Sequence record: NC_041871.1
Strand: one strand, 5' to 3'
Length of the DNA stretch: 64,000 bases
Source of the DNA: Escherichia phage Murica
In this document: positions 10,273-38,262 of the stretch, piece after piece
How positions within the stretch are numbered: the first letter of the stretch is position 1
Layout of the letters: each line of letters begins with the position of its first letter
Notes under the pieces: generated by a model
The model's input: the letters and a program-made list of their open reading frames with translations, nothing else
The model's database searches: none
What the model was told of the DNA's origin: nothing
Made by a program: the position numbers and the translations under genes

Positions 10273-10829
10273 GAAAGAAAGCTGTCAAAGCCCCAGTTCA
10301 TAACGGGTGGTTAAAAGATTCTAAGGACATAGCCAACTTTCGAAAAGAATTGTCAGAGGAGCAGGATGGTCTTGATCCGATCTTGTGCGAGCCACTTCGT
10401 AAGCCTTGTTTAGATCATGATCATCTGACTGGTCGTTGCAGGGGTGTTTTGTCTCAATGCACTAATACCTTTGAGGGGTATGTGCTTAAATACTGGATGA
10501 AATACTGTAACGAGTATACAGATTGCAGTTTATCAGAGGCGTTGCGCCGGATGGCTGACTATTTGGAGAAAGACTACAGCGACTTCCCACTCCACAAAAA
10601 CTACAGAGATGATATGACAAAGTTCTTGAGGAGATGCTCTAAAGCTACGATTATTGCACGAGCAGAATCAGATCTCAATCTTGTCATTAATCCGGAGTGC
10701 ACCAAGCATGAGGCTATTGAGTTCTACATGCAGGAGTTTATAAAGAAAACTGAGGAGAGAGATTTCTATGGGGATGAAAAAGGTATTCAATCCTTGCGAC
10801 TCAGTCCTGATCAGGATGAAATACCGTAA
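10224..10829 (+). CDS. endonuclease VII-like nuclease
   Basis: CLDHDHLTGRCRGVLSQCTN matches the EndoVII core signature; true start uncertain (overlaps upstream ORF). Confidence 0.6.
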   Translation: MDRQGSSGGIIAKRKIRKKAVKAPVHNGWLKDSKDIANFRKELSEEQDGLDPILCEPLRKPCLDHDHLTGRCRGVLSQCTNTFEGYVLKYWMKYCNEYTDCSLSEALRRMADYLEKDYSDFPLHKNYRDDMTKFLRRCSKATIIARAESDLNLVINPECTKHEAIEFYMQEFIKKTEERDFYGDEKGIQSLRLSPDQDEIP

Positions 10830-10989
10830 CTGGAAAGGTGTTGTTGCAGATCGCTGCGTTACTGAGCCTAATTTATGGTTTGGCTCTACAGAGTATCATA
10901 AAGAAGAGCAGTGGTTGATGCGTGCCTTCGATGTAGACAAGGGCGAATATCGTGACTTCGCTTTAAAAGACATTCTTCAGTTTTACTAA
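10816..10989 (+). CDS. hypothetical protein
   Basis: 57-aa ORF from ATG 10816 overlapping the EndoVII stop. Confidence 0.3.
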   Translation: MKYRNWKGVVADRCVTEPNLWFGSTEYHKEEQWLMRAFDVDKGEYRDFALKDILQFY

Positions 10990-11001
10990 GGAATCTTAAC
11001 G

Positions 11002-11985
11002 ATGATGACAAAGTTAACTCTTGAGCAAATTTTAACACTAAAGCAACAGGGATACACTAATAGACAAATTGCTCGTGAATTTTTAGGCCGTGAGTCACGT
11101 GAGAGCTGGATCCGACTACAGCTTAAACGTGCACAAGATAATATGTCAGAGATTGTAGGAGAAGCAACGGAGCGCTTCCTTGAAGAGCACAAAGGTGCTA
11201 AAGTTTGGGTGTATGATACAGAGACATCCCCAACAAACGGCTGGTTCTTTGGGCACTATAAGACCAACATTCAAACCTGCGGTATTGAAGTTATGCCCTA
11301 TATGCTAACTTTCGCAGGTAAGTGGTTAGACAGCCCTAGTGTGGTTGACTGCGCTCTTCCAGATTACAAAATGTGGGATGAAGATATTCACAATGATCTC
11401 GAATTGATTCAGGATTTGTGGTATTATCTGGATAAATGCGATGTCGCAGTAGCCCACAATTCAGGTTTTGACTGCGGGTGGGCCAACCAACGATTTGCAT
11501 TTCACGGGTTGCCTCCAACAAGCCCTTACAAAGAGGTTGACACCCTTAAAATGATCAAGAAGGCATTCCGTTTGAATGCAAACACTTTGGAGTATGCATG
11601 CAAATACTTCCAACTGGCCCGACAGAAACTGATTGATCACACATTTGAAATGTGGATCAAGTGTGTCCATGGCGATCTTGAGGCATTTAAACAGATGCGA
11701 GAGTATAATGTTGGTGATATCCTGTCTCTGGAAGGACTGTATTTGCTGGCTCGCCCGTTTGCTAAGCAGCACCCAAACATGTCATTGTACTACCAAGACG
11801 AGGAGCCAAAGGTTCGTTGCCCACGCTGTGGTGGAGAACACTTTCACGAGGAAGAAGCTTTGGCATATACTCAGCTGAGTGCATTTAAAACATACCGCTG
11901 TGAAGGTTGTGGATCTGTTGTTCGTGACCGTAACAACATCCGTACCAGAGAAGAAATGAAAAACACCCTGATTCAGATAATCTAA
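11002..11985 (+). CDS. DEDD-family 3'-5' exonuclease with N-terminal HTH and C-terminal zinc ribbon
   Basis: HTH-like LTLKQQGYTNRQIAREF; exo motifs VYDTETSP and AHNSGFD; CPRCGG...CEGCG. Confidence 0.55.
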   Translation: MMTKLTLEQILTLKQQGYTNRQIAREFLGRESRESWIRLQLKRAQDNMSEIVGEATERFLEEHKGAKVWVYDTETSPTNGWFFGHYKTNIQTCGIEVMPYMLTFAGKWLDSPSVVDCALPDYKMWDEDIHNDLELIQDLWYYLDKCDVAVAHNSGFDCGWANQRFAFHGLPPTSPYKEVDTLKMIKKAFRLNANTLEYACKYFQLARQKLIDHTFEMWIKCVHGDLEAFKQMREYNVGDILSLEGLYLLARPFAKQHPNMSLYYQDEEPKVRCPRCGGEHFHEEEALAYTQLSAFKTYRCEGCGSVVRDRNNIRTREEMKNTLIQII

Positions 11986-24993: not shown

Positions 24994-26043
24994 ATGAATT
25001 TAACACCTCGCAGAACCATGGTACACGGCATGAAAGAAAAACAGAACGGTTTCGAACCTATGAGTAATAAAATGTTTGGTATGCCGGGCGGTATCATGGA
25101 AACATACAGCTACCCAACACCTGTTGTTGACCACGTTCTTTATATCGACGATTTGGAAGACTTACAAGATCATATGTCTCGCCTGCAGACGATCCGTATG
25201 GCTCAGCCTGAAGAAAGCATTCGAGTGATCATTAACAGCCCTGGTGGTTGCGTGCACATTGCGATGGCTTATCTGCAGGCATTCCGCGAGTCTCAGGCAA
25301 GCGTTGTTGCACATGCTGAAGGAATGTGCTGCTCTGCGGGAACAATCTTATGGCTGGGTTGCAAAGAACGCACTGTGGCTCCGGACACAGAGTTTATGTT
25401 CCACTACTATCAAGGTGGCACTTATGGTAACGGTGTGAACATGAATACTCAGGTCAGCTACTGGAAAAAACGTTTTGAACGCCTGATTGAAAAATACTAC
25501 GGTGGGGTGCTGACAGAAGATGAGATCGCATCCATCACAGCTGGTGGCGAAGTGTGGTTGGACGGAGAAGAGCTGGCAGCACGCACTGGAGCTATTATTC
25601 TGGATGAAGGCAACATACAACGCATCCAGAACGGACAAAAACCGAAAAAGCTTCTGGCAAAAGGTGATGAAGAAGGCGTGTTAGGTGAAGCAGGTCTCCC
25701 GGAGATTCACCAGTGCACATCTTTAGATGAGTTAGTTCATGCTGTTGAATCTGCAAAAGCGGGTGGTTCGAAAGGTGATGTTCACACTGTGTTCCTGAAT
25801 CTGCAGATGGAAAGTGGCGAGACCGTCAGAATTGCCCTGGGTGAGATTACTTCAGAAGATCTGCAGAGATTCTCTGTCGTTGAACTTCAGGATATTCTGT
25901 CTCAATTGAAGACTACTCTGAACGGCGGTGAAGAGGTTAAGGTGAAAGATAAGACTCGCAAGCGTCTGGTGGACAATATTATTAAAACAGCAAAAGAGCT
26001 CAATGAAAAAATCCTGGGTGCAGGAATTGTCGAAGAAGCTTAA
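24994..26043 (+). CDS. ClpP/S14-like serine peptidase homolog with long C-terminal extension
   Basis: INSPGGCVHIAMA and GMCCSAGTIL resemble ClpP oxyanion and catalytic Ser motifs; 349 aa with about 150 extra C-terminal residues. Confidence 0.5.
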   Translation: MNLTPRRTMVHGMKEKQNGFEPMSNKMFGMPGGIMETYSYPTPVVDHVLYIDDLEDLQDHMSRLQTIRMAQPEESIRVIINSPGGCVHIAMAYLQAFRESQASVVAHAEGMCCSAGTILWLGCKERTVAPDTEFMFHYYQGGTYGNGVNMNTQVSYWKKRFERLIEKYYGGVLTEDEIASITAGGEVWLDGEELAARTGAIILDEGNIQRIQNGQKPKKLLAKGDEEGVLGEAGLPEIHQCTSLDELVHAVESAKAGGSKGDVHTVFLNLQMESGETVRIALGEITSEDLQRFSVVELQDILSQLKTTLNGGEEVKVKDKTRKRLVDNIIKTAKELNEKILGAGIVEEA

Positions 26044-26945: not shown

Positions 26946-27185
26946 ATGTACAAGTCATTTTCAATCTACTCAAGACAGGCGAAACACTACACAGAGATCC
27001 TGATCACTCAGAAAAAATCTGTGGAAGGTGAGTGGGAATATCACCATAAAATGTTGCGTCCAGACTGGGTTTTTGATAGACTTATTGCTATGATCCCTCT
27101 CGGAGAAGTATACCCTCTGACAGCCCATCGCGATGCTTGGGATTTAATTGATTACATAGATTCATTTAAGGAGCCTAGATTATGA
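26946..27185 (+). CDS. hypothetical protein
   Basis: ATG 26946 after a GGGGG-containing RBS. Confidence 0.35.
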   Translation: MYKSFSIYSRQAKHYTEILITQKKSVEGEWEYHHKMLRPDWVFDRLIAMIPLGEVYPLTAHRDAWDLIDYIDSFKEPRL

Positions 27186-27580
27186 AGATTGAGATTACTA
27201 AAGAAGGTAAGAAAGTGTCCGGCAACTATGCAACAGTAATTCGGGATTTAATGTTTGAAGCCACCAAGATCGGTACATCTAAAGTTGGTCAAACTGTTAG
27301 TGTGAAAAGTAATATCTCCACAGGAGAGAAGGTATTCATTGTGGTCAAAGGGCAGGATCCCGTGGAAGGAACAGTGGGCCGAGGTGGCTACCTGTGCATT
27401 TCTGAAGAGCCGCGTATGTTAGTGGCTGACGCTACTATGGGTGGGAAACGTGTGTGCGAGGCGGATGAGGTAATGATTATCCAACCTGTTGATCCAGATG
27501 ACCCAGCAACTTGGGTGGTAGGAAATGAAATCTTCTCTTTAGAAGAGTTATCCTTCCCAGCACCGCGCTCTGTTCAGTAA
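27182..27580 (+). CDS. small acidic protein, MK-I/V-E/K paralog family (probable)
   Basis: N-terminus MKIEIT; ATGA overlap with upstream gene. Confidence 0.4.
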   Translation: MKIEITKEGKKVSGNYATVIRDLMFEATKIGTSKVGQTVSVKSNISTGEKVFIVVKGQDPVEGTVGRGGYLCISEEPRMLVADATMGGKRVCEADEVMIIQPVDPDDPATWVVGNEIFSLEELSFPAPRSVQ

Positions 27581-27617
27581 TAATTTATCTTACCAGGGAC
27601 GGTAGGTAGGAGGTAGC

Positions 27618-27851
27618 ATGAAAGTTAAATTTCTTACAGATTTAGGGTACCCTTCCTTGGTTGACTGTGTTGGTAAAATTGTGGAAGCAAAACGGCTATC
27701 TGCAAACGAGAATGTTGTCCTGGTTAAAGGGAAGGATTTACTAGCTGCAGGTGCAGAGTCTGGCAGGATCTCTCCTGATTATATGTATTACCTATCTTTA
27801 AGTAATCTGCCAGAGCGAGGCGGTAAAGGCCTTGAAGTTGTGGAGGAGTGA
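27618..27851 (+). CDS. small acidic protein, MKVK paralog family
   Basis: MKVKFL...VGKIVEA...LVKGKDLLAAGAE...LEVVEE aligns with ORFs 31177 and 31394. Confidence 0.5.
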   Translation: MKVKFLTDLGYPSLVDCVGKIVEAKRLSANENVVLVKGKDLLAAGAESGRISPDYMYYLSLSNLPERGGKGLEVVEE

Positions 27852-28381
27852 CAGGTATGCTTCTGATTAACTGGGAAGACCTCTATGGGGACAAAGACCC
27901 TGTTGCGTTTGTTGATCGTAGGTGGAGATACACTGAAGAACAACTGGCGGCAAAAAATTTAACTGCAAAACGCAGAAAGATCATCCAGTGCAAGTACAAA
28001 TACGCACAGTTTGCTGCAAAAGTGTCTCCACAAATCGAGAGCTTTGTGCTTAAATTGTATGACGAGTACCTCAAATTCAAATTGGATTTTGTGCAGGTGT
28101 ACCGTGCACAGGTACGACCAGATACCAACATATGTAGATGGAAGGTTGTTTGTGAAGGTAAAGATTTGCCGCTCAGCTTGACAATTGAGTGGCGTTATGG
28201 GTATCATGAGTGTGGTCTGTATGATATTTGGGATGTCATTGTAGATCCTGCTAAGCATCTGAACACAGAGGAGCTGGAATATATCAATAAGGTTATTCTC
28301 GATATGTTTTTCAGCTACACACATGAAAACTCTGAGAAAGAACGGGATAATTTTCTTGACACCCTCAGCGACCATTTGTAG
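27848..28381 (+). CDS. hypothetical protein
   Basis: 177-aa ORF. Confidence 0.4.
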   Translation: MTGMLLINWEDLYGDKDPVAFVDRRWRYTEEQLAAKNLTAKRRKIIQCKYKYAQFAAKVSPQIESFVLKLYDEYLKFKLDFVQVYRAQVRPDTNICRWKVVCEGKDLPLSLTIEWRYGYHECGLYDIWDVIVDPAKHLNTEELEYINKVILDMFFSYTHENSEKERDNFLDTLSDHL

Positions 28382-28411
28382 TATACAATTTAACCTACAA
28401 AGGGAGGACCA

Positions 28412-28639
28412 ATGAGTATAAATGTTGTGCTAATAGGTTACCTGGTAATGTCCGTTATAACAGCGGTATTCTTGACAGGTGTATGCATCGTGTCCAGACG
28501 AAGGGTGAAGTTTGATGATTTTATCACCATCATCACTGCTGCACCTTTTTGGCCTGTTGTTATCTTCATCGTAATAATGTGCCTAGTTGATTACTACAAG
28601 AATATCAGGAAGGAGAGTAGGGATGGAGACCGCACCTAA
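28412..28639 (+). CDS. small membrane protein with two predicted TM helices
   Basis: Hydrophobic stretches VVLIGYLVMSVITAVFLTGVCIV and IITAAPFWPVVIFIVIMCLV, basic loop and C-terminus; holin-like topology but not next to the endolysin. Confidence 0.45.
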   Translation: MSINVVLIGYLVMSVITAVFLTGVCIVSRRRVKFDDFITIITAAPFWPVVIFIVIMCLVDYYKNIRKESRDGDRT

Positions 28640-28858
28640 AACTATCTATACTGTTCTTAAAGAGATTGCGTTCTACGCAGATCTTAGCCAGGCACCTTTA
28701 TGGGAAAAGAGCATGTATTTAAAATGGTGCGTTAATTTAGGGAGACCTTCCAGTGTTTCAAGCCATGTTTATTGAGATGCTATCTGGGATATTGTTACTA
28801 GTAGCCATCTTAGGTGGTGCAGTTCTGATGTATAACTATCTTGAAAAAGGAGACAGCA

Positions 28859-29044
28859 ATGGTAAAAAATAAATCTTTAGAGCAGGCTGAAAACCTTCTC
28901 CACGAGCTGGTAAAGGAGTGGAAAGTTGAATACTCAGATTTTAATGCACGAGAGGGTGAAGATTATTGGCCTACGGAGCGCTCAGAGGGCGAATGGTATC
29001 AAGATTTTATAGAGTGGTTATATCAGACGTGCGATGAGGGGTGA
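28859..29044 (+). CDS. hypothetical protein
   Basis: ATG 28859 after GGAGA; ORF-track start 28841 is TTG. Confidence 0.35.
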   Translation: MVKNKSLEQAENLLHELVKEWKVEYSDFNAREGEDYWPTERSEGEWYQDFIEWLYQTCDEG

Positions 29045-29511
29045 CGATGTTTGTTAAATATGTAAAAACGTGCCTCAACAGTCTTGGCAGAGAGCATTGG
29101 TACACCTTGCTTGAAAAAGGGGAAATTTTAACAAAATCTGGAAAGATAACTTTGATACCTCTTGATAGTAAAGGTAAAGACCCGTCACGACTTGTTATAG
29201 ATGATTACGTTACAGGTGTGACGTTCGAGGTCTCTGTGGAGAGGTTAATACGCAGAGCTGGCGGCCCTTATGACCGAAGAGAGTATGTTTTCGATTCCGT
29301 TACAGAGATGGGGGAGCATCCGTCTTTAATGTTCAGGATGGTAATCAGAGATATGAGGTCATCTATAGATAGGATCGTAAAGGACATTAAGGAACCTTTT
29401 AGAGTAAAAGTTAAGAAGTTTTTCGATTCTAAGATTAACATACTCGCCGTTGCACTAGGTGTAGTTCAACTTCTGTTAATTTTGCACTATTTTGAACTAC
29501 TATTTAAGTAG
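29041..29511 (+). CDS. hypothetical protein with C-terminal hydrophobic helix
   Basis: 156 aa; C-terminal ILAVALGVVQLLLILHYF. Confidence 0.4.
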   Translation: MTMFVKYVKTCLNSLGREHWYTLLEKGEILTKSGKITLIPLDSKGKDPSRLVIDDYVTGVTFEVSVERLIRRAGGPYDRREYVFDSVTEMGEHPSLMFRMVIRDMRSSIDRIVKDIKEPFRVKVKKFFDSKINILAVALGVVQLLLILHYFELLFK

Positions 29512-29521
29512 TAGTTGAGAT

Positions 29522-29542
29522 ATGGCACAAAGGATGTGCCAT
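29522..29542 (+). promoter_or_regulatory. palindromic operator-like site
   Basis: Perfect dyad ATGGCACA-AAGGA-TGTGCCAT; same architecture as the dyad at 22531-22546. Confidence 0.45.
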
Positions 29543-29573
29543 AGTGAAATAAACTAAGAAAGAGGTAGAGAGA

Positions 29574-29921
29574 ATGCCAAAGATTAAAACGTTATTACTG
29601 TGGGTAGCTGTTTTAGCTTTTATAGGGTACTGGACTTGGGAAACTGAATTAAAAGATATCGGATATACCAGTCTTGAGAGCAAGGCGTGCATTGGCATAA
29701 CCGATGCGTTCAGGCAAAATGCTATGGATCACGAATGTGTTGATGCAGATATAGATGAGAAACTGTCTAAGGACAAAGATTTTTACCATGGGCATGCTTT
29801 ACTTGATAGTGGTGACACTGTAGAGTTCTGGTCGTGGTTTCGTGAAGATGGAACAATAAAAACAGCAGTAAAGATCTCTAACAAAGAGTTAATGCTGTTG
29901 CAGCAAAAGGAGGCTCAATGA
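29574..29921 (+). CDS. hypothetical protein with N-terminal signal-anchor
   Basis: 115 aa; hydrophobic segment LLLWVAVLAFIGYW. Confidence 0.4.
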   Translation: MPKIKTLLLWVAVLAFIGYWTWETELKDIGYTSLESKACIGITDAFRQNAMDHECVDADIDEKLSKDKDFYHGHALLDSGDTVEFWSWFREDGTIKTAVKISNKELMLLQQKEAQ

Positions 29922-30205
29922 TCTGGATATCCTATGCTGATGGCACCATGCTGTATACTGCAGGTACCAGATATGAAGTTCAGGAGAACGATAAAAAATT
30001 TATCGTAAAAACATTTGACAAGGACGACAACCTTTTGCTAGAATTGACTTACAAAGTTGGAGAGGTATCCAATATCCAGTTGGATTGTGGTCATAAAGAT
30101 AATCCACTCAAAAAACCTGGAGTAGGTAAGGCTTCAGAAGAACGTCTGTCTCGTATTGCAGAAAGCGTTTCTCCCCAAAAATCTAAGAAGAGGACTAGAA
30201 AATGA
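29918..30205 (+). CDS. hypothetical protein
   Basis: 95-aa ORF with ATGA overlap. Confidence 0.4.
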   Translation: MIWISYADGTMLYTAGTRYEVQENDKKFIVKTFDKDDNLLLELTYKVGEVSNIQLDCGHKDNPLKKPGVGKASEERLSRIAESVSPQKSKKRTRK

Positions 30206-30396
30206 AAAACTTACGTTTTAACACTTATTACTACAACACATTGAATGATTTGTATTATATTGTTCGAAGTAAAAGTCCTGAAACAGTCCTATTCTGCCGC
30301 GAACCTTTCAAAGGGGAGGAAGTAGAGTCTGAGATGAATGTTAGCCAGATCACCTCTTTGTTGCTCTCAGGCGCAATGGAAGAAGCAATATTCTAA
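30202..30396 (+). CDS. hypothetical protein
   Basis: 64-aa ORF with ATGA overlap. Confidence 0.35.
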   Translation: MKNLRFNTYYYNTLNDLYYIVRSKSPETVLFCREPFKGEEVESEMNVSQITSLLLSGAMEEAIF

Positions 30397-30414
30397 ACCA
30401 GGCAGGAGGGTTTT

Positions 30415-30603
30415 ATGAAGCACTATTGCCTGTCTGGTAGAATGGGTGCAGATTGTGATTGGGTTTTCTTAAAACTTGTCAGCATTCGAGAGTTCATCCC
30501 AGAGGAAGAGCAAGAAAGCGAGCTGATGTCATGGATCAACCATTACGGTAACACTTTTCGGCATGTTAAGGTAGAAGAGTTGCCAAGCGAGGCTGAATTA
30601 TGA
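30415..30603 (+). CDS. hypothetical protein
   Basis: 62-aa ORF after AGGAGGG RBS. Confidence 0.4.
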   Translation: MKHYCLSGRMGADCDWVFLKLVSIREFIPEEEQESELMSWINHYGNTFRHVKVEELPSEAEL

Positions 30604-30896
30604 AACTTTTTGAGTGGTTTAAAAAGTTTAAATATAAAGCTGTAGCCATCGTGCCGTGGTCCATTCAGTGGGTTGATGAAGGTGGTCTACCGATACCTGG
30701 TGACAAAGATACTGGGTACTGGATTATGATGGAGAACGGGTTTGGAAAGCGAAAGTATACGTGCACAAACTCTACTCGATCTGCACTTAATAGAGTGCCC
30801 GGTTACAAACTTATGGTTGTGTGGAAAATGTCAGGCGTGCCTCCAGCCAATGCTCAATTTCTTACTGACAATCCGACCACGGTAGAGGGAGATTGA
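30600..30896 (+). CDS. hypothetical protein
   Basis: 98-aa ORF with ATGA overlap. Confidence 0.4.
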   Translation: MKLFEWFKKFKYKAVAIVPWSIQWVDEGGLPIPGDKDTGYWIMMENGFGKRKYTCTNSTRSALNRVPGYKLMVVWKMSGVPPANAQFLTDNPTTVEGD

Positions 30897-31180
30897 TAAT
30901 GAAAAAGATTAACAGTAGTGAAGTAGAGTTTAAACTTGTCGGAAAAGGCACTTACTGGGAAGTTCGTCAAAAGGTATATTTGTTCGGTCTTATTCCCTAC
31001 TGGTCTAAATTCTACTGGGGAGCTAACGAGTTGGGAAGATATGCCACCAAATCAATGGCACTTATTGGTATAGCAGAGTACATTGCAGCCCGAGACAGGG
31101 TTGGAACCACTTATTACTACACTGCTGACGATATTCGTAACAGTGTTTACGTCCCACAACCACCTGATGGAGACCGTTGA
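30893..31180 (+). CDS. hypothetical protein
   Basis: 95-aa ORF with overlapping start. Confidence 0.4.
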   Translation: MIMKKINSSEVEFKLVGKGTYWEVRQKVYLFGLIPYWSKFYWGANELGRYATKSMALIGIAEYIAARDRVGTTYYYTADDIRNSVYVPQPPDGDR

Positions 31181-31404
31181 TGAAAGTTAAAGTTTTAGAT
31201 TCAAGCTTCTATATTGGTCAGGAGCCTTTAGTAGGAAAAGTGTTTACTGCTGTCCCTAACGAAGATTACCCTGACCTTTTAAAAATAAAAGGAGCAGATC
31301 TTATTGCCGCTGGTGCATCTCAGGAATGCTTTGACAGTCAGTGGACCTATAACTTTGCCCTAGGTGAGGATGTAGAGGTAGTGGAGGACGATCATGAAGG
31401 TTAA
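31177..31404 (+). CDS. small acidic protein, MKVK paralog family
   Basis: MKVKVLDSSFYIGQ..VGKV..IKGADLIAAGA..VEVVED. Confidence 0.5.
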   Translation: MMKVKVLDSSFYIGQEPLVGKVFTAVPNEDYPDLLKIKGADLIAAGASQECFDSQWTYNFALGEDVEVVEDDHEG

Positions 31405-31648
31405 AATTCTTGATTCTAACGTCTACTTGGGGCAATCCTTCCTGAATGGAAAGGTCGTTCCTGCGGTATACTTTGAAGGGTTGCCGTGGGATGATCCTGT
31501 GCGGCAACATCACAATTATGTAGGCCACAACGTGGTGTTTATCTTGGGATCAGACCTGATCACCGCTGGTGCACCTGAATATTATTTCGGGGAAGAGTCC
31601 TACTATGCCTTTGGGGTAGGGTCAGATGCAGATATTGTAGAGCTGTGA
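31394..31648 (+). CDS. small acidic protein, MKVK paralog family
   Basis: MKVKILDSNVYLGQ..NGKV..GSDLITAGA..DIVEL. Confidence 0.5.
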   Translation: MKVKILDSNVYLGQSFLNGKVVPAVYFEGLPWDDPVRQHHNYVGHNVVFILGSDLITAGAPEYYFGEESYYAFGVGSDADIVEL

Positions 31649-31660
31649 TGGGTAACCGTT

Positions 31661-32059
31661 GTGAAAAATAAACTGTTTAAAGTTACAATGAAAATTCGCG
31701 GGGCTTGGAGCGTAAAGCAAGGGCGTATTCCAGAATTTGAGAAAGACTTCTACGTAGTCTCCACCTCTGAGGAGGCTGCATGCTGGCAGGCTGGCTATGC
31801 CTATGCAAGAACCTGGTACGAAGGATACCAGACTGGGGGCTATGACGGAGAAATTATCAGCAAGGGTGTAGAAGAAATTAATGTGTTGACAAGTGAAAAA
31901 GTTTTTGTTATAGTGCATCCAGATTCCAGAGTGAAGCATTACTGGAATGCCAGAACAAAAACTTGGACACCGTTTGCAGATTCTGCTACGCCACTTTTAA
32001 ACCAGAAAGCTCTTGACTCTGCCCCAAGTTATGGGGTTGTTGAAGAAAAGCTAAACTGA
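31661..32059 (+). CDS. hypothetical protein, paralog of ORF 33870
   Basis: Shares KVFVIVHPDSRVKHYWNARTKTWTP with KFVMRHPHSNIAYYWDVLNNEWTP of ORF 33870. Confidence 0.5.
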   Translation: MKNKLFKVTMKIRGAWSVKQGRIPEFEKDFYVVSTSEEAACWQAGYAYARTWYEGYQTGGYDGEIISKGVEEINVLTSEKVFVIVHPDSRVKHYWNARTKTWTPFADSATPLLNQKALDSAPSYGVVEEKLN

Positions 32060-32076
32060 AACAGTGAGGTGTCACC

Positions 32077-32367
32077 ATGATGGATTTAATTCTAAATATT
32101 GATAACGCAGGAGAGTTTAAAGACGATGGTGTAACAAGCATGGACAAACCCTGCTCTGCTAAGGTTGACTCAAAATGGACCTACAAGTTTGACGGAGAGA
32201 TCTTCGCAAATGATGAGAAGGTTGTAGATGCTGCAGCCATTTTAAACGCTCTAGGGTACGACCCTGTGAATTCTTTGATCAAGGATCCTGTTGAGTTTGC
32301 AGAGTATGTTCGAAAAATGGCAGATCTTGCTGTGGATATTTTAAAAACTATCGACAACAAGCTGTAA
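32077..32367 (+). CDS. hypothetical protein
   Basis: 96-aa acidic ORF. Confidence 0.4.
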   Translation: MMDLILNIDNAGEFKDDGVTSMDKPCSAKVDSKWTYKFDGEIFANDEKVVDAAAILNALGYDPVNSLIKDPVEFAEYVRKMADLAVDILKTIDNKL

Positions 32368-32373
32368 AAACTG

Positions 32374-32402
32374 TTGACACAACGCTTCAGATTTAGTATC
32401 AT
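32374..32402 (+). promoter_or_regulatory. sigma70-type promoter TTGACA-17-TATCAT
   Basis: Consensus -35 with 17-nt spacer upstream of ORF 32452. Confidence 0.55.
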
Positions 32403-32451
32403 TGTTTTCAAAGAGAGATAGTTATTCCCTCTTCCTTAAAAGGAACACGTT

Positions 32452-32751
32452 ATGCAAATTGAAATCACTGGCAACAATGTAGAAATCACAGAAGGTATGG
32501 TATCTTTTATTTCCCGCAAAATGTCCAAGCTGGAGCGTTTACATCCCTCTGTTAACTATGCACGTGTGAGTGTAAAAGTTGAAAATGATCACCAGGAAGT
32601 TATGGCGTTCATTTTTGACAATTCTGGAAAAGAAGTTATTGCCAAGGCTAAAGGCAGTGATGCTTACGAGGCAACTGACCGTATGGTAGATGTTGCAGCA
32701 CGTCAGCTGGCTAAATGCGGTGGAAAGAAAGGTAAGGGGAAGGCAAAGTAA
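32452..32751 (+). CDS. small protein, possible MK-I/V-E paralog
   Basis: MQIEITGNNVEIT N-terminus; glycine/lysine-rich C-terminus. Confidence 0.4.
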   Translation: MQIEITGNNVEITEGMVSFISRKMSKLERLHPSVNYARVSVKVENDHQEVMAFIFDNSGKEVIAKAKGSDAYEATDRMVDVAARQLAKCGGKKGKGKAK

Positions 32752-32780
32752 AGATTGACTTTGGAGAATGAGGTGCTACA

Positions 32781-32882
32781 ATGGGTGTGATTAAGAAATT
32801 AGTCCCAAATGTAGAGATTGCATGCTTTGAAATTATGTTTGCAATCGCAGTTGTAGTTAATGTGTTAGGTTACGGCTATTAA
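32781..32882 (+). CDS. small hydrophobic peptide (33 aa)
   Basis: ATG 32781 after GGAG..GAGG; single TM-like segment; below ORF-track cutoff. Confidence 0.3.
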   Translation: MGVIKKLVPNVEIACFEIMFAIAVVVNVLGYGY

Positions 32883-32908
32883 TATCAAATAATTGAGGAG
32901 ACCTCTAA

Positions 32909-33178
32909 ATGAAAATTAAATTATTCCAAACTGAGCTGGCAGACAAAAATTGTGGACTGGTTGAAGGCATGATTGTTGAAGCACAACCAGTGGACTATAT
33001 GAAGGTGGTTCGTGATGCCCTAGGTGAAGGTTTTGATCTGATGGAGCCAGCTCTGCGAGAAGATGTTATCGAGATGGCTAAAAAGCACACACCTGAAGGT
33101 TTGGTGGTGTTTGTTGCACCGGGTAACGGAGAAGAGTTGATTGTAACTCCTGATGTGTATGAGATTGTAGAGGAATAA
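32909..33178 (+). CDS. small acidic protein, MK-I/V-K paralog family
   Basis: MKIKLFQTEL...EIVEE. Confidence 0.45.
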   Translation: MKIKLFQTELADKNCGLVEGMIVEAQPVDYMKVVRDALGEGFDLMEPALREDVIEMAKKHTPEGLVVFVAPGNGEELIVTPDVYEIVEE

Positions 33179-33197
33179 TCCTGCTTGGATTAGCATA

Positions 33198-33228
33198 CTT
33201 CCTCGCTAAGGAAGATTTGTAATTATTT
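33198..33228 (+). terminator. intrinsic terminator-like hairpin
   Basis: CTTCCT-cgcta-AGGAAG followed by ATTTGTAATTATTTG. Confidence 0.5.
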
Positions 33229-33269
33229 GTGGGAAAGGAGTCCCAATCTCTTACCAGAGGTGATACTAT

Positions 33270-33533
33270 ATGATTGTTTATTTTAAAACTTCAGGTGGAT
33301 ACCCTGATTCTCAAAGCTTGATCGGAAAAACGTGCACAGCATACTCACCTCTTGATGAGGAGGTAAGCGATATTTTACGAAATATGTATCGGATTGACCC
33401 CCAAGAAGCCTTTGATCAAAACCTTGTATTTGTCAAGGGCTCAGATATGAAGTCTTTGGGAGCATTCCCTGAAGCAGATGATGATGCCGTTTATTCGTTC
33501 ATGACTCCTTTTGAAGCTATGGTTGTTGGGTGA
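33270..33533 (+). CDS. small acidic protein, paralog family member
   Basis: GYPDSQSLIGKT...VFVKGSDMKSLGA aligns with the MKVK family core. Confidence 0.45.
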   Translation: MIVYFKTSGGYPDSQSLIGKTCTAYSPLDEEVSDILRNMYRIDPQEAFDQNLVFVKGSDMKSLGAFPEADDDAVYSFMTPFEAMVVG

Positions 33534-33537
33534 TAAT

Positions 33538-33870
33538 ATGAAAGTACGCTTTATTGGTGAAACAATTCCTGTGCATCTCCGGTCGCCTGAGGATTCTGCA
33601 GATCTTGCATCTCAAAAGGCGAGAGGTTATGATAAGAAAGTAACCTCAACCGATGTAGTGCTTGAGGCTACTAGTCTACCTGACCCTGCTGCATTCTTTA
33701 ATCATTATGGGTACTATTTCAGCAATCTGATGAATATCGGTGAGCTTGTGTTTATTAGTGGTGGAGAAATTGTTAGCAAGCTTGGCGGCGATCCGGATAT
33801 CTTTCATGAAACCTGTCCTTTTGCATTTGTGGTAGGTTCAGATGTGGAAGTTATTGAGGAGGTGCGGTAA
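33538..33870 (+). CDS. small acidic protein, MKVR paralog family
   Basis: Start moved to ATG 33538 (MKVRFIGE); ends VGSDVEVIEEVR. Confidence 0.45.
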   Translation: MKVRFIGETIPVHLRSPEDSADLASQKARGYDKKVTSTDVVLEATSLPDPAAFFNHYGYYFSNLMNIGELVFISGGEIVSKLGGDPDIFHETCPFAFVVGSDVEVIEEVR

Positions 33871-34265
33871 TGGTAAGCCTATACCGTGTTGAGTATAGCT
33901 CAGATACTGTATACAACGTAAGAAGCAAAGATCGCAGCGACAGAGTGCAAGAAATGTATGTTCTTGCCGACAGTCCGTTATCTGCAGCGTTCAAGGCAGG
34001 GGCTCTTGCATCTCGTTGGAAATTTGAAGGTGGATCTTTCTATGAAGAAACCCTTGAAGATTCTGTTGTTATTTCTTCTGTAGAGGTTTCAGATGACTAC
34101 GAAGGGAAAAAGTTCGTAATGCGGCACCCACACAGCAACATTGCGTACTACTGGGATGTTCTGAACAACGAGTGGACCCCAGATCTTCAGAAGGCTACTG
34201 TGCTAACACCGTTTTTGGCAGATAAGTTCCCACCAGAAGGTAATTTATCCGCACTGTTTCAGTAA
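33870..34265 (+). CDS. hypothetical protein, paralog of ORF 31661
   Basis: Shared HP-S..YW...WTP core with ORF 31661. Confidence 0.5.
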   Translation: MVSLYRVEYSSDTVYNVRSKDRSDRVQEMYVLADSPLSAAFKAGALASRWKFEGGSFYEETLEDSVVISSVEVSDDYEGKKFVMRHPHSNIAYYWDVLNNEWTPDLQKATVLTPFLADKFPPEGNLSALFQ

Positions 34266-34273
34266 TTTTCTTG

Positions 34274-34311
34274 CACACAGGTGTTGACAACGCCAACCCT
34301 GTGTGAAATAA
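34274..34311 (+). promoter_or_regulatory. promoter with -35 hexamer in a hairpin loop
   Basis: Inverted repeat CACACAGG-N16-CCTGTGTG encloses TTGACA (34283-34288); AATAAT 17 nt downstream. Confidence 0.45.
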
Positions 34312-34341
34312 TACCTTCATCTTAACAAGACAGGGGACCGA

Positions 34342-34602
34342 TTGATGAAGATTAAATTGAAAAACCTTGAAACGGCAGAGATTCAGGACGGTGTTGATTT
34401 CCGTTCTAAAGATGGTGACATCTTAGAGGTAAATATTCCAACCTACGAGCTGATTAAAGGTTTTGGCAACGTTCCGGAAGAGGATATTACAGAAATTCTT
34501 ATGATGTTGATTCTTGACGGAACTGTGTTTGTAGGTGAAGGTGAGAACGCTATTGCAATCCCAGGCCATTTTTATGAAGTAGTTGACGAAGAGGTGCTGT
34601 AA
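34342..34602 (+). CDS. small acidic protein, MK-I/V-K paralog family
   Basis: MMKIKLKNLE...YEVVDEEVL. Confidence 0.45.
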   Translation: MMKIKLKNLETAEIQDGVDFRSKDGDILEVNIPTYELIKGFGNVPEEDITEILMMLILDGTVFVGEGENAIAIPGHFYEVVDEEVL

Positions 34603-34953
34603 ATGAAAGTAGAAATTACCGGTTTTGATGTGAATGTGGTTCCGGAAGATATTTTAGCTAAACTTCCAGAAGGTTTTGGTAACGGCGTTGTGGTGGATGC
34701 TGTTCCTCCTACCAAAGACATTCTGCTGCAGTATGGTGTAGCAGAGGAAGATGTCGATAAAGTTCTTACAATGATGGCAATCGATCGTGTTGTCGTTGTT
34801 AAAGGTCTCGATAATTTTGAGAGTGATCCCCTGATTATTCGTGGAGATGACTACAAAATCATCGATAATGAAGGCCAAGAGTTCTATGAACCTTGTGCAG
34901 AAGATATTCTTAACTTATTACTGGAAGCAGGTACCGAAGAGGAGGACGAATAA
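34603..34953 (+). CDS. small acidic protein, MKVE paralog family (probable)
   Basis: MKVEITGFDVNVV; acidic C-terminus. Confidence 0.45.
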   Translation: MKVEITGFDVNVVPEDILAKLPEGFGNGVVVDAVPPTKDILLQYGVAEEDVDKVLTMMAIDRVVVVKGLDNFESDPLIIRGDDYKIIDNEGQEFYEPCAEDILNLLLEAGTEEEDE

Positions 34954-35282
34954 TGAAGATTGACCCGTTACTGAAGGCTCGTGCAGAAAAAGCGTACACC
35001 ATTAAGCTGACCAACCTGGTTCCTACTTGTCATCCAGATGTAGGTTGGCCTGAAGGTCTGGTAGAGGGGACTGTAACAGCTGCATACCTCCCTAACATCA
35101 AATACCTTATGGAAATCTTGGAGCTGGATGAGGAAACGGCAGAAGAGTTCCAGTTGGACATGAAACAAAGTGGGACTCTGGTTATTCACGGGTGGTATAA
35201 TACTAAAGACGCAGAAGACCCTCTTGTAACTTCTAATCTGGCATATGAAATCTTAGGACCTTTGAACCTGGGGGAAGACTAA
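34953..35282 (+). CDS. small acidic protein
   Basis: 109-aa ORF with ATGA overlap; N-terminus MKIDPL. Confidence 0.4.
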   Translation: MKIDPLLKARAEKAYTIKLTNLVPTCHPDVGWPEGLVEGTVTAAYLPNIKYLMEILELDEETAEEFQLDMKQSGTLVIHGWYNTKDAEDPLVTSNLAYEILGPLNLGED

Positions 35283-35569
35283 TGAAAGATCTGGTTAAGA
35301 TTAAGATTAAAGATACCAACGGCGAACTCAGCCATTTTGGAATTAATGATGGTGACGAGCTGATCGCACACCTGCCTACCAAGGAAGTTGTAAGCAAAGC
35401 AGTTGCCGGAGAAGAAGATGCAATGCAGGCTGCAGGTGTGGATGAAAACTATGTAGCCATGTGCATGTGCCGAGACCAGGTTGTTCTGTATAAAGCGTAT
35501 CGACCAAACGGAGCCACGGAGTGGCTTGTATTCCGACCCGAAGGATATGAAATCTTAGAGGCACTATGA
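35282..35569 (+). CDS. small acidic protein
   Basis: 95-aa ORF with ATGA overlap. Confidence 0.4.
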   Translation: MKDLVKIKIKDTNGELSHFGINDGDELIAHLPTKEVVSKAVAGEEDAMQAAGVDENYVAMCMCRDQVVLYKAYRPNGATEWLVFRPEGYEILEAL

Positions 35570-35649
35570 TAAATCTTGCCAAGGTTGCAACGGCACTGTT
35601 AATTATTTGCTGGTCAGTAACCTTAACACTGTGTCTTGTATTTCAGTAA
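35566..35649 (+). CDS. small hydrophobic peptide (27 aa)
   Basis: ATG overlaps upstream stop; MINLAKVATALLIICWSVTLTLCLVFQ; below ORF-track cutoff. Confidence 0.3.
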   Translation: MINLAKVATALLIICWSVTLTLCLVFQ

Positions 35650-35658
35650 GGTGCTTAT

Positions 35659-35922
35659 ATGAACATCCTGATGTGGGTTGTAGCAGTGGCGTTTGTTGCA
35701 TGTTTTTGCTGCTGGGTTGCGGTGAGGATTTCTGTAGCTACCCTTCGGAAGTTGGGGTTCTCAGAGTGGGATATTAATATCCTTTCTTTTCGCAATGAAA
35801 CAATCTCAGCCGCCCTGCTCTGTAAGAAATTCAAGTGGGAACCTTGCGAGGTCATGAACTATCTAAGAACGGGAGATATCCCTGAAAGATTTAAAAAAGT
35901 TCTTGACGACAAGGATAAATGA
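35659..35922 (+). CDS. small membrane protein
   Basis: 87 aa; N-terminal TM segment ILMWVVAVAFVACFCCWVAV. Confidence 0.4.
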   Translation: MNILMWVVAVAFVACFCCWVAVRISVATLRKLGFSEWDINILSFRNETISAALLCKKFKWEPCEVMNYLRTGDIPERFKKVLDDKDK

Positions 35923-36077
35923 TAGTATAGTGACTAACAAGAGGTGAGGAATGACTGATTTTACTGAAGCTTTAATGATGGCCTTGTCTGTTTTAGCGCT
36001 ATCGGTGTGTTTTGGGGCGTTATTCACATCTCTGGTTAAAGTTTTACATACAGTATTATTACCCAAGGAGCGCAGTA

Positions 36078-36329
36078 ATGACGAAGATTGACTTAAATGC
36101 TGGAGACCATGTTGTTGTCAAATGCATCGGAGATTATCTTGGATTCACAATCGGCAATACTTACGAGGCGGTAGTGGCGAAGGTTTACCATGATAAAGTC
36201 CTCAGTCTTGTATTTGACTGCGATGATGATGGGGATGACCGATACGTCTGTGAGGTGCTGGCACGAGACGATAGTGAAGACCAGAAATTCCTGGTTATTG
36301 AACTGAACGGTATTTTTGTAGAACGTTAA
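36078..36329 (+). CDS. small acidic protein
   Basis: ATG 36078 after AAGGAG; ORF-track start 36012 has no RBS. Confidence 0.4.
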   Translation: MTKIDLNAGDHVVVKCIGDYLGFTIGNTYEAVVAKVYHDKVLSLVFDCDDDGDDRYVCEVLARDDSEDQKFLVIELNGIFVER

Positions 36330-36357
36330 TTTAAAACAACATAAGGAGACTCTTACT

Positions 36358-36663
36358 ATGGCTAAATCTAAAGTTGAACTGTTCACCTCTCTTCCTTCTG
36401 ACACTGCAGAGCGTGATCGCCTTCGCAAAACAATCGAAGAACTGGTAGAACTCCAACTTCAGATTAAAGATCTGAAAGATGCCATTAAGGATATCATTCT
36501 CGTTGAGAAGCAGGATCACCTGTATTCTCCTAAATTCATCAAATCTCTGGTGGCTACCGAGTTCGATATTCGCTATGAGGCTGAAAAACGTCGCGCTAAA
36601 ATCGAAGAAGAGGTTGAGCACATGTCTGAGGCAGACATTCTGTTCAAACGCTCTGTAGAATAA
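36358..36663 (+). CDS. coiled-coil protein
   Basis: 101 aa, charged heptad-like pattern; strong AAGGAGA RBS and terminator immediately downstream. Confidence 0.5.
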   Translation: MAKSKVELFTSLPSDTAERDRLRKTIEELVELQLQIKDLKDAIKDIILVEKQDHLYSPKFIKSLVATEFDIRYEAEKRRAKIEEEVEHMSEADILFKRSVE

Positions 36664-36672
36664 TGACAAAGA

Positions 36673-36697
36673 GAGGGGCTTGGGCCCCTCTTTTTAC
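36673..36697 (+). terminator. intrinsic terminator
   Basis: GAGGGGC-ttgg-GCCCCTC followed by TTTTTACT. Confidence 0.8.
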
Positions 36698-36718
36698 TAT
36701 CTATGAAGGAGATTTGAG

Positions 36719-37045
36719 ATGGGTATACCAATCACTGTAAAAGAATTGAATGAGCGTGATGCAGGCGGTCTATGGCCTGCACGAAAAATCCGCTGCGTCT
36801 ATATGAAAGAGAATCTTGAACATCTTGATCAACAGATCAAGGTCGGTGATATTTTTGAGGTCTTCTATTCCAATCGTCGTAACTGGGAAACCATTCAACC
36901 TTCTGGTTTTGTTCTTGCCAAACTTGACACTGGAGAAGTGATTATCCCTGGGTTGGATATTGTCTTCGAAATTATCCAGGAGTGGGATCCGGATAAGATT
37001 AGATACGAAGAGTTATTCGGTAAAGGTATTATCAAACCTGTGTGA
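36719..37045 (+). CDS. hypothetical protein
   Basis: 108-aa ORF. Confidence 0.4.
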   Translation: MGIPITVKELNERDAGGLWPARKIRCVYMKENLEHLDQQIKVGDIFEVFYSNRRNWETIQPSGFVLAKLDTGEVIIPGLDIVFEIIQEWDPDKIRYEELFGKGIIKPV

Positions 37046-37353
37046 GGTGGATTATGTCTACAAAGGCGGCTAAATACTCCTACATGCCATCAACCTCTGC
37101 AGAGGTAGACTTTAGTTTCGATGTGTTTCCACTGTTTGAGGTGGTTCTGGCATACCCAACAATACTATCTACTCCTGAATCACTTGTACCTGTTAAGTTG
37201 CAGAACGCTATGCATTCTATGCACTACAACAATAAATGTAGGCACAGATGGTGTCAGGACGAGGAAAAAGATTTGGATAGTTTGAGGGATTTTGACAGTC
37301 ACCTTTTGACACCTTTCAGCTACTCCAACCTTGATAAGCCCTCATGGGTATAG
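37042..37353 (+). CDS. hypothetical protein
   Basis: 103-aa ORF with overlapping start. Confidence 0.4.
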   Translation: MRWIMSTKAAKYSYMPSTSAEVDFSFDVFPLFEVVLAYPTILSTPESLVPVKLQNAMHSMHYNNKCRHRWCQDEEKDLDSLRDFDSHLLTPFSYSNLDKPSWV

Positions 37354-37377
37354 CAAAATATCAAATTTAAGACACCT

Positions 37378-37405
37378 AGGACGCTCTGTGGCGTCCTTTT
37401 CTTTA
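37378..37405 (+). terminator. intrinsic terminator
   Basis: AGGACGC-tctgtg-GCGTCCT followed by TTTCTTTATCT. Confidence 0.75.
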
Positions 37406-37566
37406 TCTGGTGCACGATTGCATACCTTGGACAGATAATCTCGTTACAGAGCGTTTAAGAGCTTTCTACAAACAAGTCTCTCTTTCGAGCGTAGCGAGAA
37501 CGCACGTCCGTTTTGACCAAAATCACCATACGCTCGGATTTTAACCAAACCCTCGCGGCGTTGCTG

Positions 37567-37595
37567 TTGACACATTACCGCTCCCGTGATAGTAT
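37567..37595 (+). promoter_or_regulatory. sigma70-type promoter TTGACA-17-TAGTAT
   Basis: Consensus -35 with 17-nt spacer upstream of the small ORF at 37616. Confidence 0.55.
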
Positions 37596-37615
37596 CCACA
37601 CACAGTTTGGAGAAT

Positions 37616-37717
37616 ATGGAATACACAATGAGAACATTGTCTGAAGTTTTAGTGGTGATCCTGATGATCATTACTTCCATAGCGGCTGTTGCCGGAATAC
37701 TCACGGGTGGAACATGA
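37616..37717 (+). CDS. small hydrophobic peptide (about 30 aa)
   Basis: Single TM-like segment LVVILMIITSIAAVAGIL; stop overlaps ATG of ORF 37714; start ambiguous (37616 or 37628). Confidence 0.3.
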   Translation: MEYTMRTLSEVLVVILMIITSIAAVAGILTGGT

Positions 37718-37926
37718 TCAACACACATGCACCTGAAGAGACATCCAAAGGAGTGACCATATGTCCCTTGGCTGAGCCAGTTAGAGAGGAAAACTTAGAT
37801 TCTGAGGACTCTTCATCTTCGTCCCAGACAGATCCTGAGGCTGATGACCTGACGTGGGAGGACATCGTAGATATCTGGTTCTCTATTATGCCTGAGCACG
37901 AAGAGTTCAGAGGTGGTAGACTATGA
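37714..37926 (+). CDS. small acidic protein
   Basis: 70 aa, serine/acidic-rich. Confidence 0.4.
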   Translation: MINTHAPEETSKGVTICPLAEPVREENLDSEDSSSSSQTDPEADDLTWEDIVDIWFSIMPEHEEFRGGRL

Positions 37927-38046
37927 AGCACCGAGCCCACACAGGTTCCTCATGCTAAAGCATGGCCTGAAGAGGCAAACGTGTATAATTCCTGTGCATT
38001 GTGACGTATAAAACCCGTTCACACTCTCATTTCCAGAGGAGATTTT

Positions 38047-38262
38047 ATGAAGATAGAAATATTTGGTGGAGCTGACAACACTCGTGGCCTGATTTACCTG
38101 GAATTCGATGAATCATACCTGCCAGAGGTGTTAAATATAGACTCTGTTGCTGAGGCTTTGGGAGTAAACCCTAAAGAACTCCACTCTTGTGCTGAGATCG
38201 ATGGTTGGGAAGAGACCATGAACATTGATTTCAGTGAAGTAGAGGATGAACCGCTGGACTGA
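38047..38262 (+). CDS. small acidic protein, MKIE paralog family (probable)
   Basis: MKIEIFGGADNTRGLIYLEF; last plus-strand gene before the non-coding gap. Confidence 0.45.
   Translation: MKIEIFGGADNTRGLIYLEFDESYLPEVLNIDSVAEALGVNPKELHSCAEIDGWEETMNIDFSEVEDEPLD

Follow-up and report, generated by a model that had tools for sequence, protein, structure and literature searches.

Escherichia phage Murica (NC_041871.1) carries an array of genes for small acidic proteins within positions 27182-38262 of the 64,000-nucleotide stretch analysed here, which as a whole is referred to as the window. In a database nucleotide comparison this region shows 99.5% DNA identity to the rV5-like E. coli myophages of the genus Vequintavirus, and at least 80% of it is covered in 114 database records. 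The real genes of the region are all on the plus strand. The array lies downstream of the genes for a ClpP-like protease and a DNA methyltransferase, and in the related phages nearly all genes of the array region are annotated as 'hypothetical'. By sequence comparison, ten of the open reading frames (ORFs) are shown to be paralogs beyond chance, and they form two five-member sequence families, here named F1 and F2. The genes are listed below with their rV5 counterparts and are called by their start positions. The leave-one-out E-values come from hidden Markov models (HMMs) built from the other four genes of the family together with database homologs and run against the 473 ORFs of at least 40 amino acids (aa) in the window.

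27618..27851, plus strand: F1, 77 aa; rV5 gp122/ORF127; phrog_5009 E 8e-36; leave-one-out E 3.6e-7
31180..31404, plus strand: F1, 74 aa; rV5 gp135; phrog_5009 E 1.7e-38; leave-one-out E 3.4e-18
31394..31648, plus strand: F1, 84 aa; rV5 gp136; phrog_5009 E 3.6e-32; leave-one-out E 1.9e-17
33270..33533, plus strand: F1, 87 aa; rV5 gp142; phrog_5009 E 1.2e-4 (weak); leave-one-out E 5.7e-5
33538..33870, plus strand: F1, 110 aa; rV5 gp143; no direct phrog_5009 match; leave-one-out E 9.5e-7; profile P 8.9e-17 against F1
32909..33178, plus strand: F2, 89 aa; rV5 gp141; leave-one-out E 8.7e-4; C-terminus EIVEE
34345..34602, plus strand: F2, 85 aa; rV5 gp145; leave-one-out E 5.2e-5; first gene of a four-gene tandem run
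34603..34953, plus strand: F2, 116 aa; rV5 gp146; leave-one-out E 2.5e-6; net charge -21, C-terminal tail acidic and helical
34953..35282, plus strand: F2, 109 aa; rV5 gp147; leave-one-out E 0.17 (weakest of the ten)
35282..35569, plus strand: F2, 95 aa; split as gp148/gp149 in the rV5 reference record (gp148/149); leave-one-out E 5.3e-5

Two families of five paralogs

An all-against-all local blastp comparison of 34 proteins of the region produced two clusters. The first comprises the five F1 members (E 1.5e-14 to 1e-2, the lowest value being that of 31394 against 31180), and the second 34345, 34603 and 35282 (E 2.5e-4 to 5e-3), to which 32909 and 34953 were added through alignments. In all ten leave-one-out tests the left-out gene was the best match outside the training set. 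Nine of the ten members were recovered at E 3e-18 to 9e-4 and 34953, whose alignment with the remaining F2 members extends from end to end, was recovered weakly; the best unrelated ORFs had E-values of at least 0.1, in F1 and F2 searches alike. In addition, PHROGs independently puts 27618, 31180 and 31394 into phrog_5009.

A sequence-only reading of the same DNA had described one paralog family of at least ten ORFs with common terminal motifs and a common internal block. The ten paralogs are upheld by the HMMs and blastp, whereas the single family has to be replaced by two sequence families for which common ancestry is only probable. The internal block GK..A..KG.DL.AAGA proved to be a feature of F1: 27618 and 31180 have it in clear form, 31394 almost in full, and 33270 and 33538 in degenerate form. 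The F2 genes have a helical insert in its stead, and the block is absent from 32909 and 34342 (in the numbering of that reading), which had been listed among the clearest members. The terminal motifs are indeed non-random. The start motif MK[VI][KERD][IFVL] is present in 10 of the 473 ORFs, nine of them within the region, and the acidic C-terminal motif [ED][VI][VI][ED][EDL] in six, every one of which belongs to F1 or F2. The proteins are also small (74-116 aa) and acidic as described, with a median isoelectric point (pI) of 4.49 in F1 and 4.34 in F2 against 5.36 for 24 neighbouring genes, several of which are unrelated and equally acidic.

It could be argued that such ORFs share nothing but composition and a generic MKVK strand start. 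The N-terminal motif is generic in that it also begins 27182, 38047 and an unrelated minus-strand ORF, and an HPF-like gene of the array region begins with the similar strand MQIEIT. We give this explanation hardly any credence: it does not account for the recovery of nine of the ten genes among 473 ORFs, for the independent PHROG grouping, for confident and consistent AlphaFold models in which five strands follow the same order, or for the many external relatives that show the full-length pattern too. Compositional bias is thereby refuted for each of the two families, the exceptions being the link between F1 and F2 and two ORFs at the ends of the region:

27182..27580, plus strand: boundary ORF with unsupported membership, 132 aa, phrog_5748; profile P 0.048 (F1) and 0.052 (F2)
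38047..38262, plus strand: boundary ORF with unsupported membership, 71 aa, phrog_12108; profile P 0.035 (F1) and 0.0064 (F2)

The array had been taken to span 27182-38262, and this extent is not supported: both end ORFs share the start motif only (MKIEI in 27182) and their profile P-values are within or near the control range. The P of 0.0064 of 38047 against F2 is the best among 24 control genes and is not significant; 38047 is possibly a very distant member. Together with 36078, whose profile scores are in the same range, these candidates were rejected or left open. The F2 model described below matches an 83-aa protein of Shigella phage CM1 with a template modelling (TM) score of 0.53, and that protein may be the ortholog of 36078.

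A second pair of paralogs is interspersed with F1. The products of 31661-32059 (132 aa) and 33870-34265 (131 aa) both belong to phrog_7379 and match each other at blastp E 2e-8, and each gene is directly downstream of an adjacent F1 pair (31180-31394-31661 and 33270-33538-33870). In both blocks an 'LP.DP' insertion is found in the second F1 gene. The double occurrence of the [F1][F1][phrog_7379] order together with this insertion suggests an ancient three-gene segmental duplication.

Predicted fold and the probable link between F1 and F2

One protein of each family was modelled with AlphaFold2 on alignments of paralogs and homologs. The model of the F1 protein 31180 (predicted local distance difference test score, pLDDT, 89.7) has strands at residues 2-5, 21-26, 33-37, 56-61 and 65-69 and a helix at 38-43, which is the DLIAAG block. 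The model of the F2 protein 34345 (pLDDT 81.5) has strands at residues 2-5, 26-30, 61-63, 70-72 and 77-81 and helices at 34-38 and 45-58. The five strands come in identical order in the two models, and the helical hairpin of F2 occupies the beta2-beta3 site at which the F1 members 31394, 33270 (approximately 20 residues) and 33538 (a member with two large insertions) carry insertions of their own. According to the models, the ten proteins are small single-domain beta-barrels, the fold being predicted with confidence.

When the F1 model was compared with the PDB by Foldseek, nothing significant was found (best E 0.69). The only solved kinds of structure in the resulting list were SH3-like barrels (uL24/KOW, eL21, Spt5/NusG KOW and SH3). 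The likeness consists of five short strands in approximately 70 residues, at E-values of at least 0.69, TM scores of 0.36-0.48 and 8-17% identity, whereas F1 has a short helix after strand 3 and contains no KOW or SH3 sequence motif. We treat this modelled resemblance as a lead only and not as membership. A comparison of the F1 model with a library of predicted viral structures returned numerous uncharacterised small proteins of phages at TM scores of 0.65-0.87, among them those of Cronobacter CS01, Citrobacter Merlin, RB49, Sf20, pSf-1, VpV262 and Klebsiella ZCKP1. An 87-aa protein of Shigella phage CM1 (TM 0.80) is, judged by its length only, probably the ortholog of 33270. The best match of the F2 model was an 86-aa protein of Vibrio phage Vc1 (TM 0.74, E 4e-5).

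That F1 and F2 come from one ancestor is probable, not proven. Under the default choice of match columns, the hhalign alignment of the two profiles was confined to the first 27 columns (P 0.004-0.013, probability 3-8%). In global mode with an enriched F2 alignment P was 2.8e-4, and with the first sequence as master it was 3.7-3.9e-5 at a probability of 58-80% (68-70% without secondary-structure scoring); the latter alignment pairs strands 1, 2, 3 and 5 and treats the F2 helices as an insertion. When single genes were compared with the F1 profile, 24 unrelated genes of the region had P of at least 0.024, and three of the five F2 genes (0.0018, 0.012 and 0.022) outscored all of these controls. 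Rank-enrichment tests gave P 2e-5 and 0.006; they are post hoc and suggestive at most. The near confinement of the terminal motifs to F1 and F2 genes also favours the link. On the other side, F2 genes did not match the F1 family HMM, and the G.DLI.AGA helix is found in F1 only.

Relatives, conservation and genomic setting

A word-index search of 5.8 billion proteins returned almost exclusively vequintavirus contigs, and an exhaustive HMM search of 1.84 billion representatives yielded 43 clusters at E<=1e-3. The wider members are mostly 63-87 aa long and follow the full-length pattern MKVKLLNDGGY.G ... GKV..A ... G.[DE]LI.AGA ... Y.F..G.E.E[IV][IV]EE; F1 shows it over 65-90 residues, in the form MKVKLL..GY...GKV..A ... 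G.DLI.AGA ... Y.F..G.E.E[IV][IV]EE, and across an alignment of 39 sequences conservation reaches 90% or more at Y11, G38 and G45. Some relatives are fusions, with the domain present twice (P0106, P0123) or three times (P0097). Another long match, P0098 (1140 aa, seven matches), is an acidic 'FNLDSA.DSDFDLVIVKG' repeat protein and was discarded as spurious. Of the 39 aligned members, 38 match phrog_5009 and 21 match phrog_13367, which places F1, on sequence grounds, in the widespread uncharacterised phage family phrog_5009/13367. The catalogued family has the same length, motif pattern and fold as F1 and has no function attached. In PHROGs the other seven array genes are split into the single-lineage families 13920, 13661, 11868, 12359, 12155, 12457 and 12794, so that grouping reveals neither the ten-member array nor the link between F1 and F2.

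Searches for characterised relatives gave little. Pfam produced no meaningful match to the ten array proteins or the 39 wider members, its results for P0097, P0123, P0118 and P0119, which are multi-domain relatives, were uninformative, and NCBIfam and PADLOC scans of the ten proteins gave nothing meaningful. A sequence-profile search of the PDB found only a designed ankyrin-like repeat with an 'LL.AGAD' turn (E 0.16), which is read as a motif coincidence.

Outside the vequintaviruses the homologs occupy accessory, non-structural slots in all contexts, in temperate as well as virulent phages. In lambdoid E. coli prophages the homolog P0031 is located between the Q antiterminator and holin genes, and a prophage copy of this type is present on 13 of 5,426 complete E. 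coli chromosomes. The protein is 43% identical to 27618, and the beta4-beta5 insertion 'LPERGGKG' of 27618 is common to the lambdoid-prophage homolog. In a Morganella prophage and one other prophage the homolog is flanked by recombination genes (RecT/YqaJ or Erf/SSB) on one side and by genes for NinX, MT-A70 and integrase on the other, and in a T4-like Moonvirus it lies between gene 32 and frd. A Proteus phage has two copies upstream of the holin gene, and F1 relatives are also found in P22-like prophages. Elsewhere the copy number is mostly one and occasionally two; five F1 plus five F2 genes are a feature of the rV5 lineage. The 174-aa product of 27857-28381, the gene 3' of 27618, and a 92-aa product encoded 5' of P0031 (L003 7726-8004) have 'Y.YHECG' in common. 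A conserved gene pair was considered here and rejected: the match covers seven residues (E 0.007), the proteins belong to different PHROGs and the similarity is probably due to chance.

The identity between paralogs, 19-47% within F1 and 25-29% within F2, points to old duplications. Six vequintaviruses have the complete set of ten genes in collinear order. For these genomes the gene-wide ratio of nonsynonymous to synonymous substitutions (dN/dS), calculated from pooled Nei-Gojobori counts, was 0.04-0.21 in F1, 0.06-0.32 in F2 and 0.01-0.40 in the neighbours. A divergent lineage, represented by locus L013 (ClpP 69% identical), has the ten genes in the same order at 35-83% identity, like the neighbouring genes. 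By tblastn, 31180 was found in 116 and 34345 in 117 of approximately 121 related phage records. The dN/dS values of 0.04-0.32, no higher than those of the neighbours, and the synteny in the six genomes and L013 indicate purifying selection on core genes, and the diversifying selection that had been proposed from the sequence is therefore not borne out.

Some variation was nevertheless observed. Two records of a related phage have a divergent allele of 34345 with 52% identity. Public assemblies contain chimeric ORFs (P0009, P0015, P0028), in some of which the N-terminal half of 31180 is combined with the C-terminal half of 31394, while another joins a prophage-type N-terminus to the C-terminus of 31180. 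The 31180/31394 chimeras imply deletion between tandem paralogs; the chimeras are either products of recombination between paralogs or assembly artefacts. In L013 an extra 98-aa gene (10810-11106, Pfam Phage_P22_Y8K6) is inserted between the phrog_7379 gene and the F2 run, which shows that the array tolerates accessory insertions of the temperate-phage type.

Three promoter-like sites are located in the array:

32374..32402, plus strand: strong sigma-70-like promoter-like site before the HPF-like gene 32452; matches rV5 P144
32755..32782, plus strand: sigma-70-like site, 10/12 consensus, with TG, upstream of 32909-33270-33538; from a consensus scan only
34284..34312, plus strand: sigma-70-type promoter, TTGACA-17-AATAAT with TG upstream, 11/12 consensus, before the F2 tandem run

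The last of these has the position of the annotated rV5 promoter P150, upstream of the orthologous gene. According to the rV5 authors the array genes belong to the transcription unit that comprises genes 82-163; they also annotated the sigma-70-type promoters P144 and P150. In the F2 run 34345 and 34603 abut at 0 nt and the next two junctions overlap by 1 nt, while 31180 and 31394 overlap by 11 nt; these arrangements suggest translational coupling. By mass spectrometry of rV5 virions, gp133 was the sole protein reported from this region, and the reported virion proteins include none of the ten (PMC3606486). The array is located in a non-structural block of the phage genome with sigma-70-type promoters, a setting that counts in favour of the sequence-only reading.

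Among the other genes of the region, 32452-32751, in the middle of the array, encodes a ribosome hibernation factor homolog (PF02482 Ribosomal_S30AE, E 3.3e-15). The adjoining F2 gene 32909, similar in size to an HPF/sigma-54 modulation protein gene, has orthologs labelled 'sigma 54 modulation factor' in several GenBank records (e.g., L001 8729-8998 and L007 10226-10495). Since 32909 fails to match PF02482 at a cutoff as loose as E<=1 and does not resemble 32452 in blastp, this label is an annotation error likely to have spread from the neighbour. The 154-aa product of 29047-29511 matches phrog_7821 ('virion structural protein') and is rV5 ORF133, with the RefSeq locus tag gp128. A 101-aa coiled-coil protein (36358-36663, phrog_639, 'transcriptional regulator') has a weak GapR-like Pfam match (E 0.04) and is strongly conserved, with 91% identity even in L013; it is followed by a GC-rich hairpin at 36668-36693, where rV5 has an annotated terminator. 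Past 38262 the GC skew changes sign, and between approximately 38300 and 42000 there is no ORF of at least 150 aa before 42033, which fits the description of rV5, where transcription switches direction and a stretch is largely non-coding. The whole window is free of tRNA genes. Finally, 18 records named 'Campylobacter phage' (including MG065635 and MG065653), most with Campylobacter jejuni as the stated host, are 98-99.5% identical to the E. coli rV5-like phages here; probably either the host label is wrong or the preparations were contaminated.

Possible functions of the array proteins

As to function, we consider it an even call that the ten proteins are stoichiometric binders, in which a constant scaffold carries paralog-specific loops for putative host or defence targets. 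This role is favoured because each protein is one small domain, has no catalytic motif and combines a conserved core with variable loops, and because fused relatives exist. In the 39-member alignment conservation falls mainly on core and turn residues and on the acidic C-terminal strand, C-terminal [IVLM][IVLMQ]E being present in approximately three quarters of the members as read by eye, and variation and insertions cluster in three loops. The constant scaffold would be formed by the conserved barrel together with the C-terminal strand [IV][IV]EE, which is acidic and likewise conserved. Paralog-specific target specificity would reside in the loops at residues 6-20, at the beta2-beta3 insertion site and at residues 46-55, and different paralogs would bind distinct host or defence proteins. 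The genes would be transcribed by host RNA polymerase from the sigma-70-type promoters, and translation within the tandem runs would be tightly coupled.

Several points weigh against this role. Pfam, NCBIfam, PADLOC and PDB sequence searches supplied no relative, and no homolog of known function, that would support binding. The temporal class of the genes is deduced from promoter consensus only, no Vequintavirus transcriptome having been found in a literature search. The profile link between F1 and F2 varies with the alignment settings, from a probability of 3-8% up to 58-80%, and the Foldseek lists of the two models overlap weakly, with two weak targets in common. Finally, the strong purifying selection and core status of the genes would suit a phage-internal role just as well.

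Under such a phage-internal role the proteins would be subunits, chaperones or regulators of phage replication, transcription, translation control or proteolysis; they might, for instance, act as adaptors of the ClpP-like protease whose gene is at 24994-26043. Besides the conservation just mentioned, the neighbourhood (ClpP-like protease, PhoH-like protein, methyltransferase and HPF-like factor) is in line with this possibility, and the conserved acidic C-terminus could serve as a common docking handle. However, prophages and unrelated phages have the homolog in single copy, the three prophage flanks with Pfam domain calls contain neither ClpP nor HPF genes, and a single internal partner would hardly account for ten diverged copies. 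On balance we regard a phage-internal role as unlikely.

The binder role can also be worded more specifically, as a repertoire built on one barrel in which the acidic C-terminal strand docks to a common partner and three hypervariable loops direct each paralog to its own host or defence target. A candidate for this partner is a protease, of host or phage origin, or some other central machine. In this specific form the proposal is doubtful; were it true, the single-copy relatives in prophages and T4-like phages would represent individual modules and the fused two- and three-domain forms avidity versions.

Large virulent phages have multigene families of small early or accessory proteins, mostly without known function. 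The array resembles these families in being a tandem cluster of short acidic non-structural ORFs with host-type promoters. It differs from them in that the copies are ancient, belong to the genus core and are under purifying selection, and in that the same domain circulates in single copy in temperate phages. The sequence-only reading pointed to a putative host-takeover or anti-defence role. As arms-race anti-defence effectors, the paralogs would each inhibit a different immune system in a family diversified by positive selection. The proteins are small, acidic and non-structural, the temperate-phage members lie in accessory or moron slots and are patchy (the 13 of 5,426 complete E. coli genomes), and both the inter-paralog chimeras (P0009, P0015, P0028) and the 52%-identical allele of 34345 would fit such effectors. 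Anti-defence cargo is usually variable in presence, whereas all ten genes are core genes with dN/dS like that of their neighbours and are syntenic even in the divergent lineage. Moreover, Vequintavirinae are reported to be exceptionally susceptible to restriction-modification (RM) and commonly hit by abortive infection (Abi) systems (PMC8594841), which speaks against anti-defence effectors in general, and the RM susceptibility disfavours an Ocr-like anti-restriction role in particular. PADLOC, which covers defence proteins, and the PDB sequence search revealed no known anti-defence families; no dedicated anti-defence library was searched. An arms-race function of this kind is, in our opinion, improbable.

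The acidity of the proteins (pI 4.05-5.4, net charge down to -21) could also indicate mimics of DNA or other nucleic acids which, in the manner of Ocr, ArdA and Arn, titrate host proteins that bind DNA. Such mimicry seems very unlikely: the predicted structure is a compact five-stranded barrel and not an elongated mimic, neither sequence nor fold matched known mimics in the PDB, several unrelated neighbouring genes are equally acidic, and the phage group is highly RM-sensitive.

Altogether, the array is an old, stably inherited ten-gene family which is partly catalogued (phrog_5009) and uncharacterised. The ten-copy array is absent from the literature found: searches by PHROG identifiers and for Vequintavirus anti-defence, paralogs and transcriptomes yielded no paper on these genes, and the rV5 genome paper makes no mention of paralogs. 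The rV5-like phages are among the commonest E. coli phage isolates and are therapy candidates, and approximately one third of their genes, including this block, are without an assigned function. Here ten 'hypothetical proteins' are reduced to one or two families with a confidently predicted fold, a propagated 'sigma 54 modulation factor' mis-annotation is corrected, the array is linked to a family spread over temperate and virulent enterobacterial phages, and its copies are shown to be old, each having been maintained in its own right. The array is thus a tractable subject for deletion and interaction work: a single structure, or a single partner once identified, would supply annotation across many phage genomes. 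The results also temper the default view of tandem small-gene families of phages as fast-evolving anti-defence genes.

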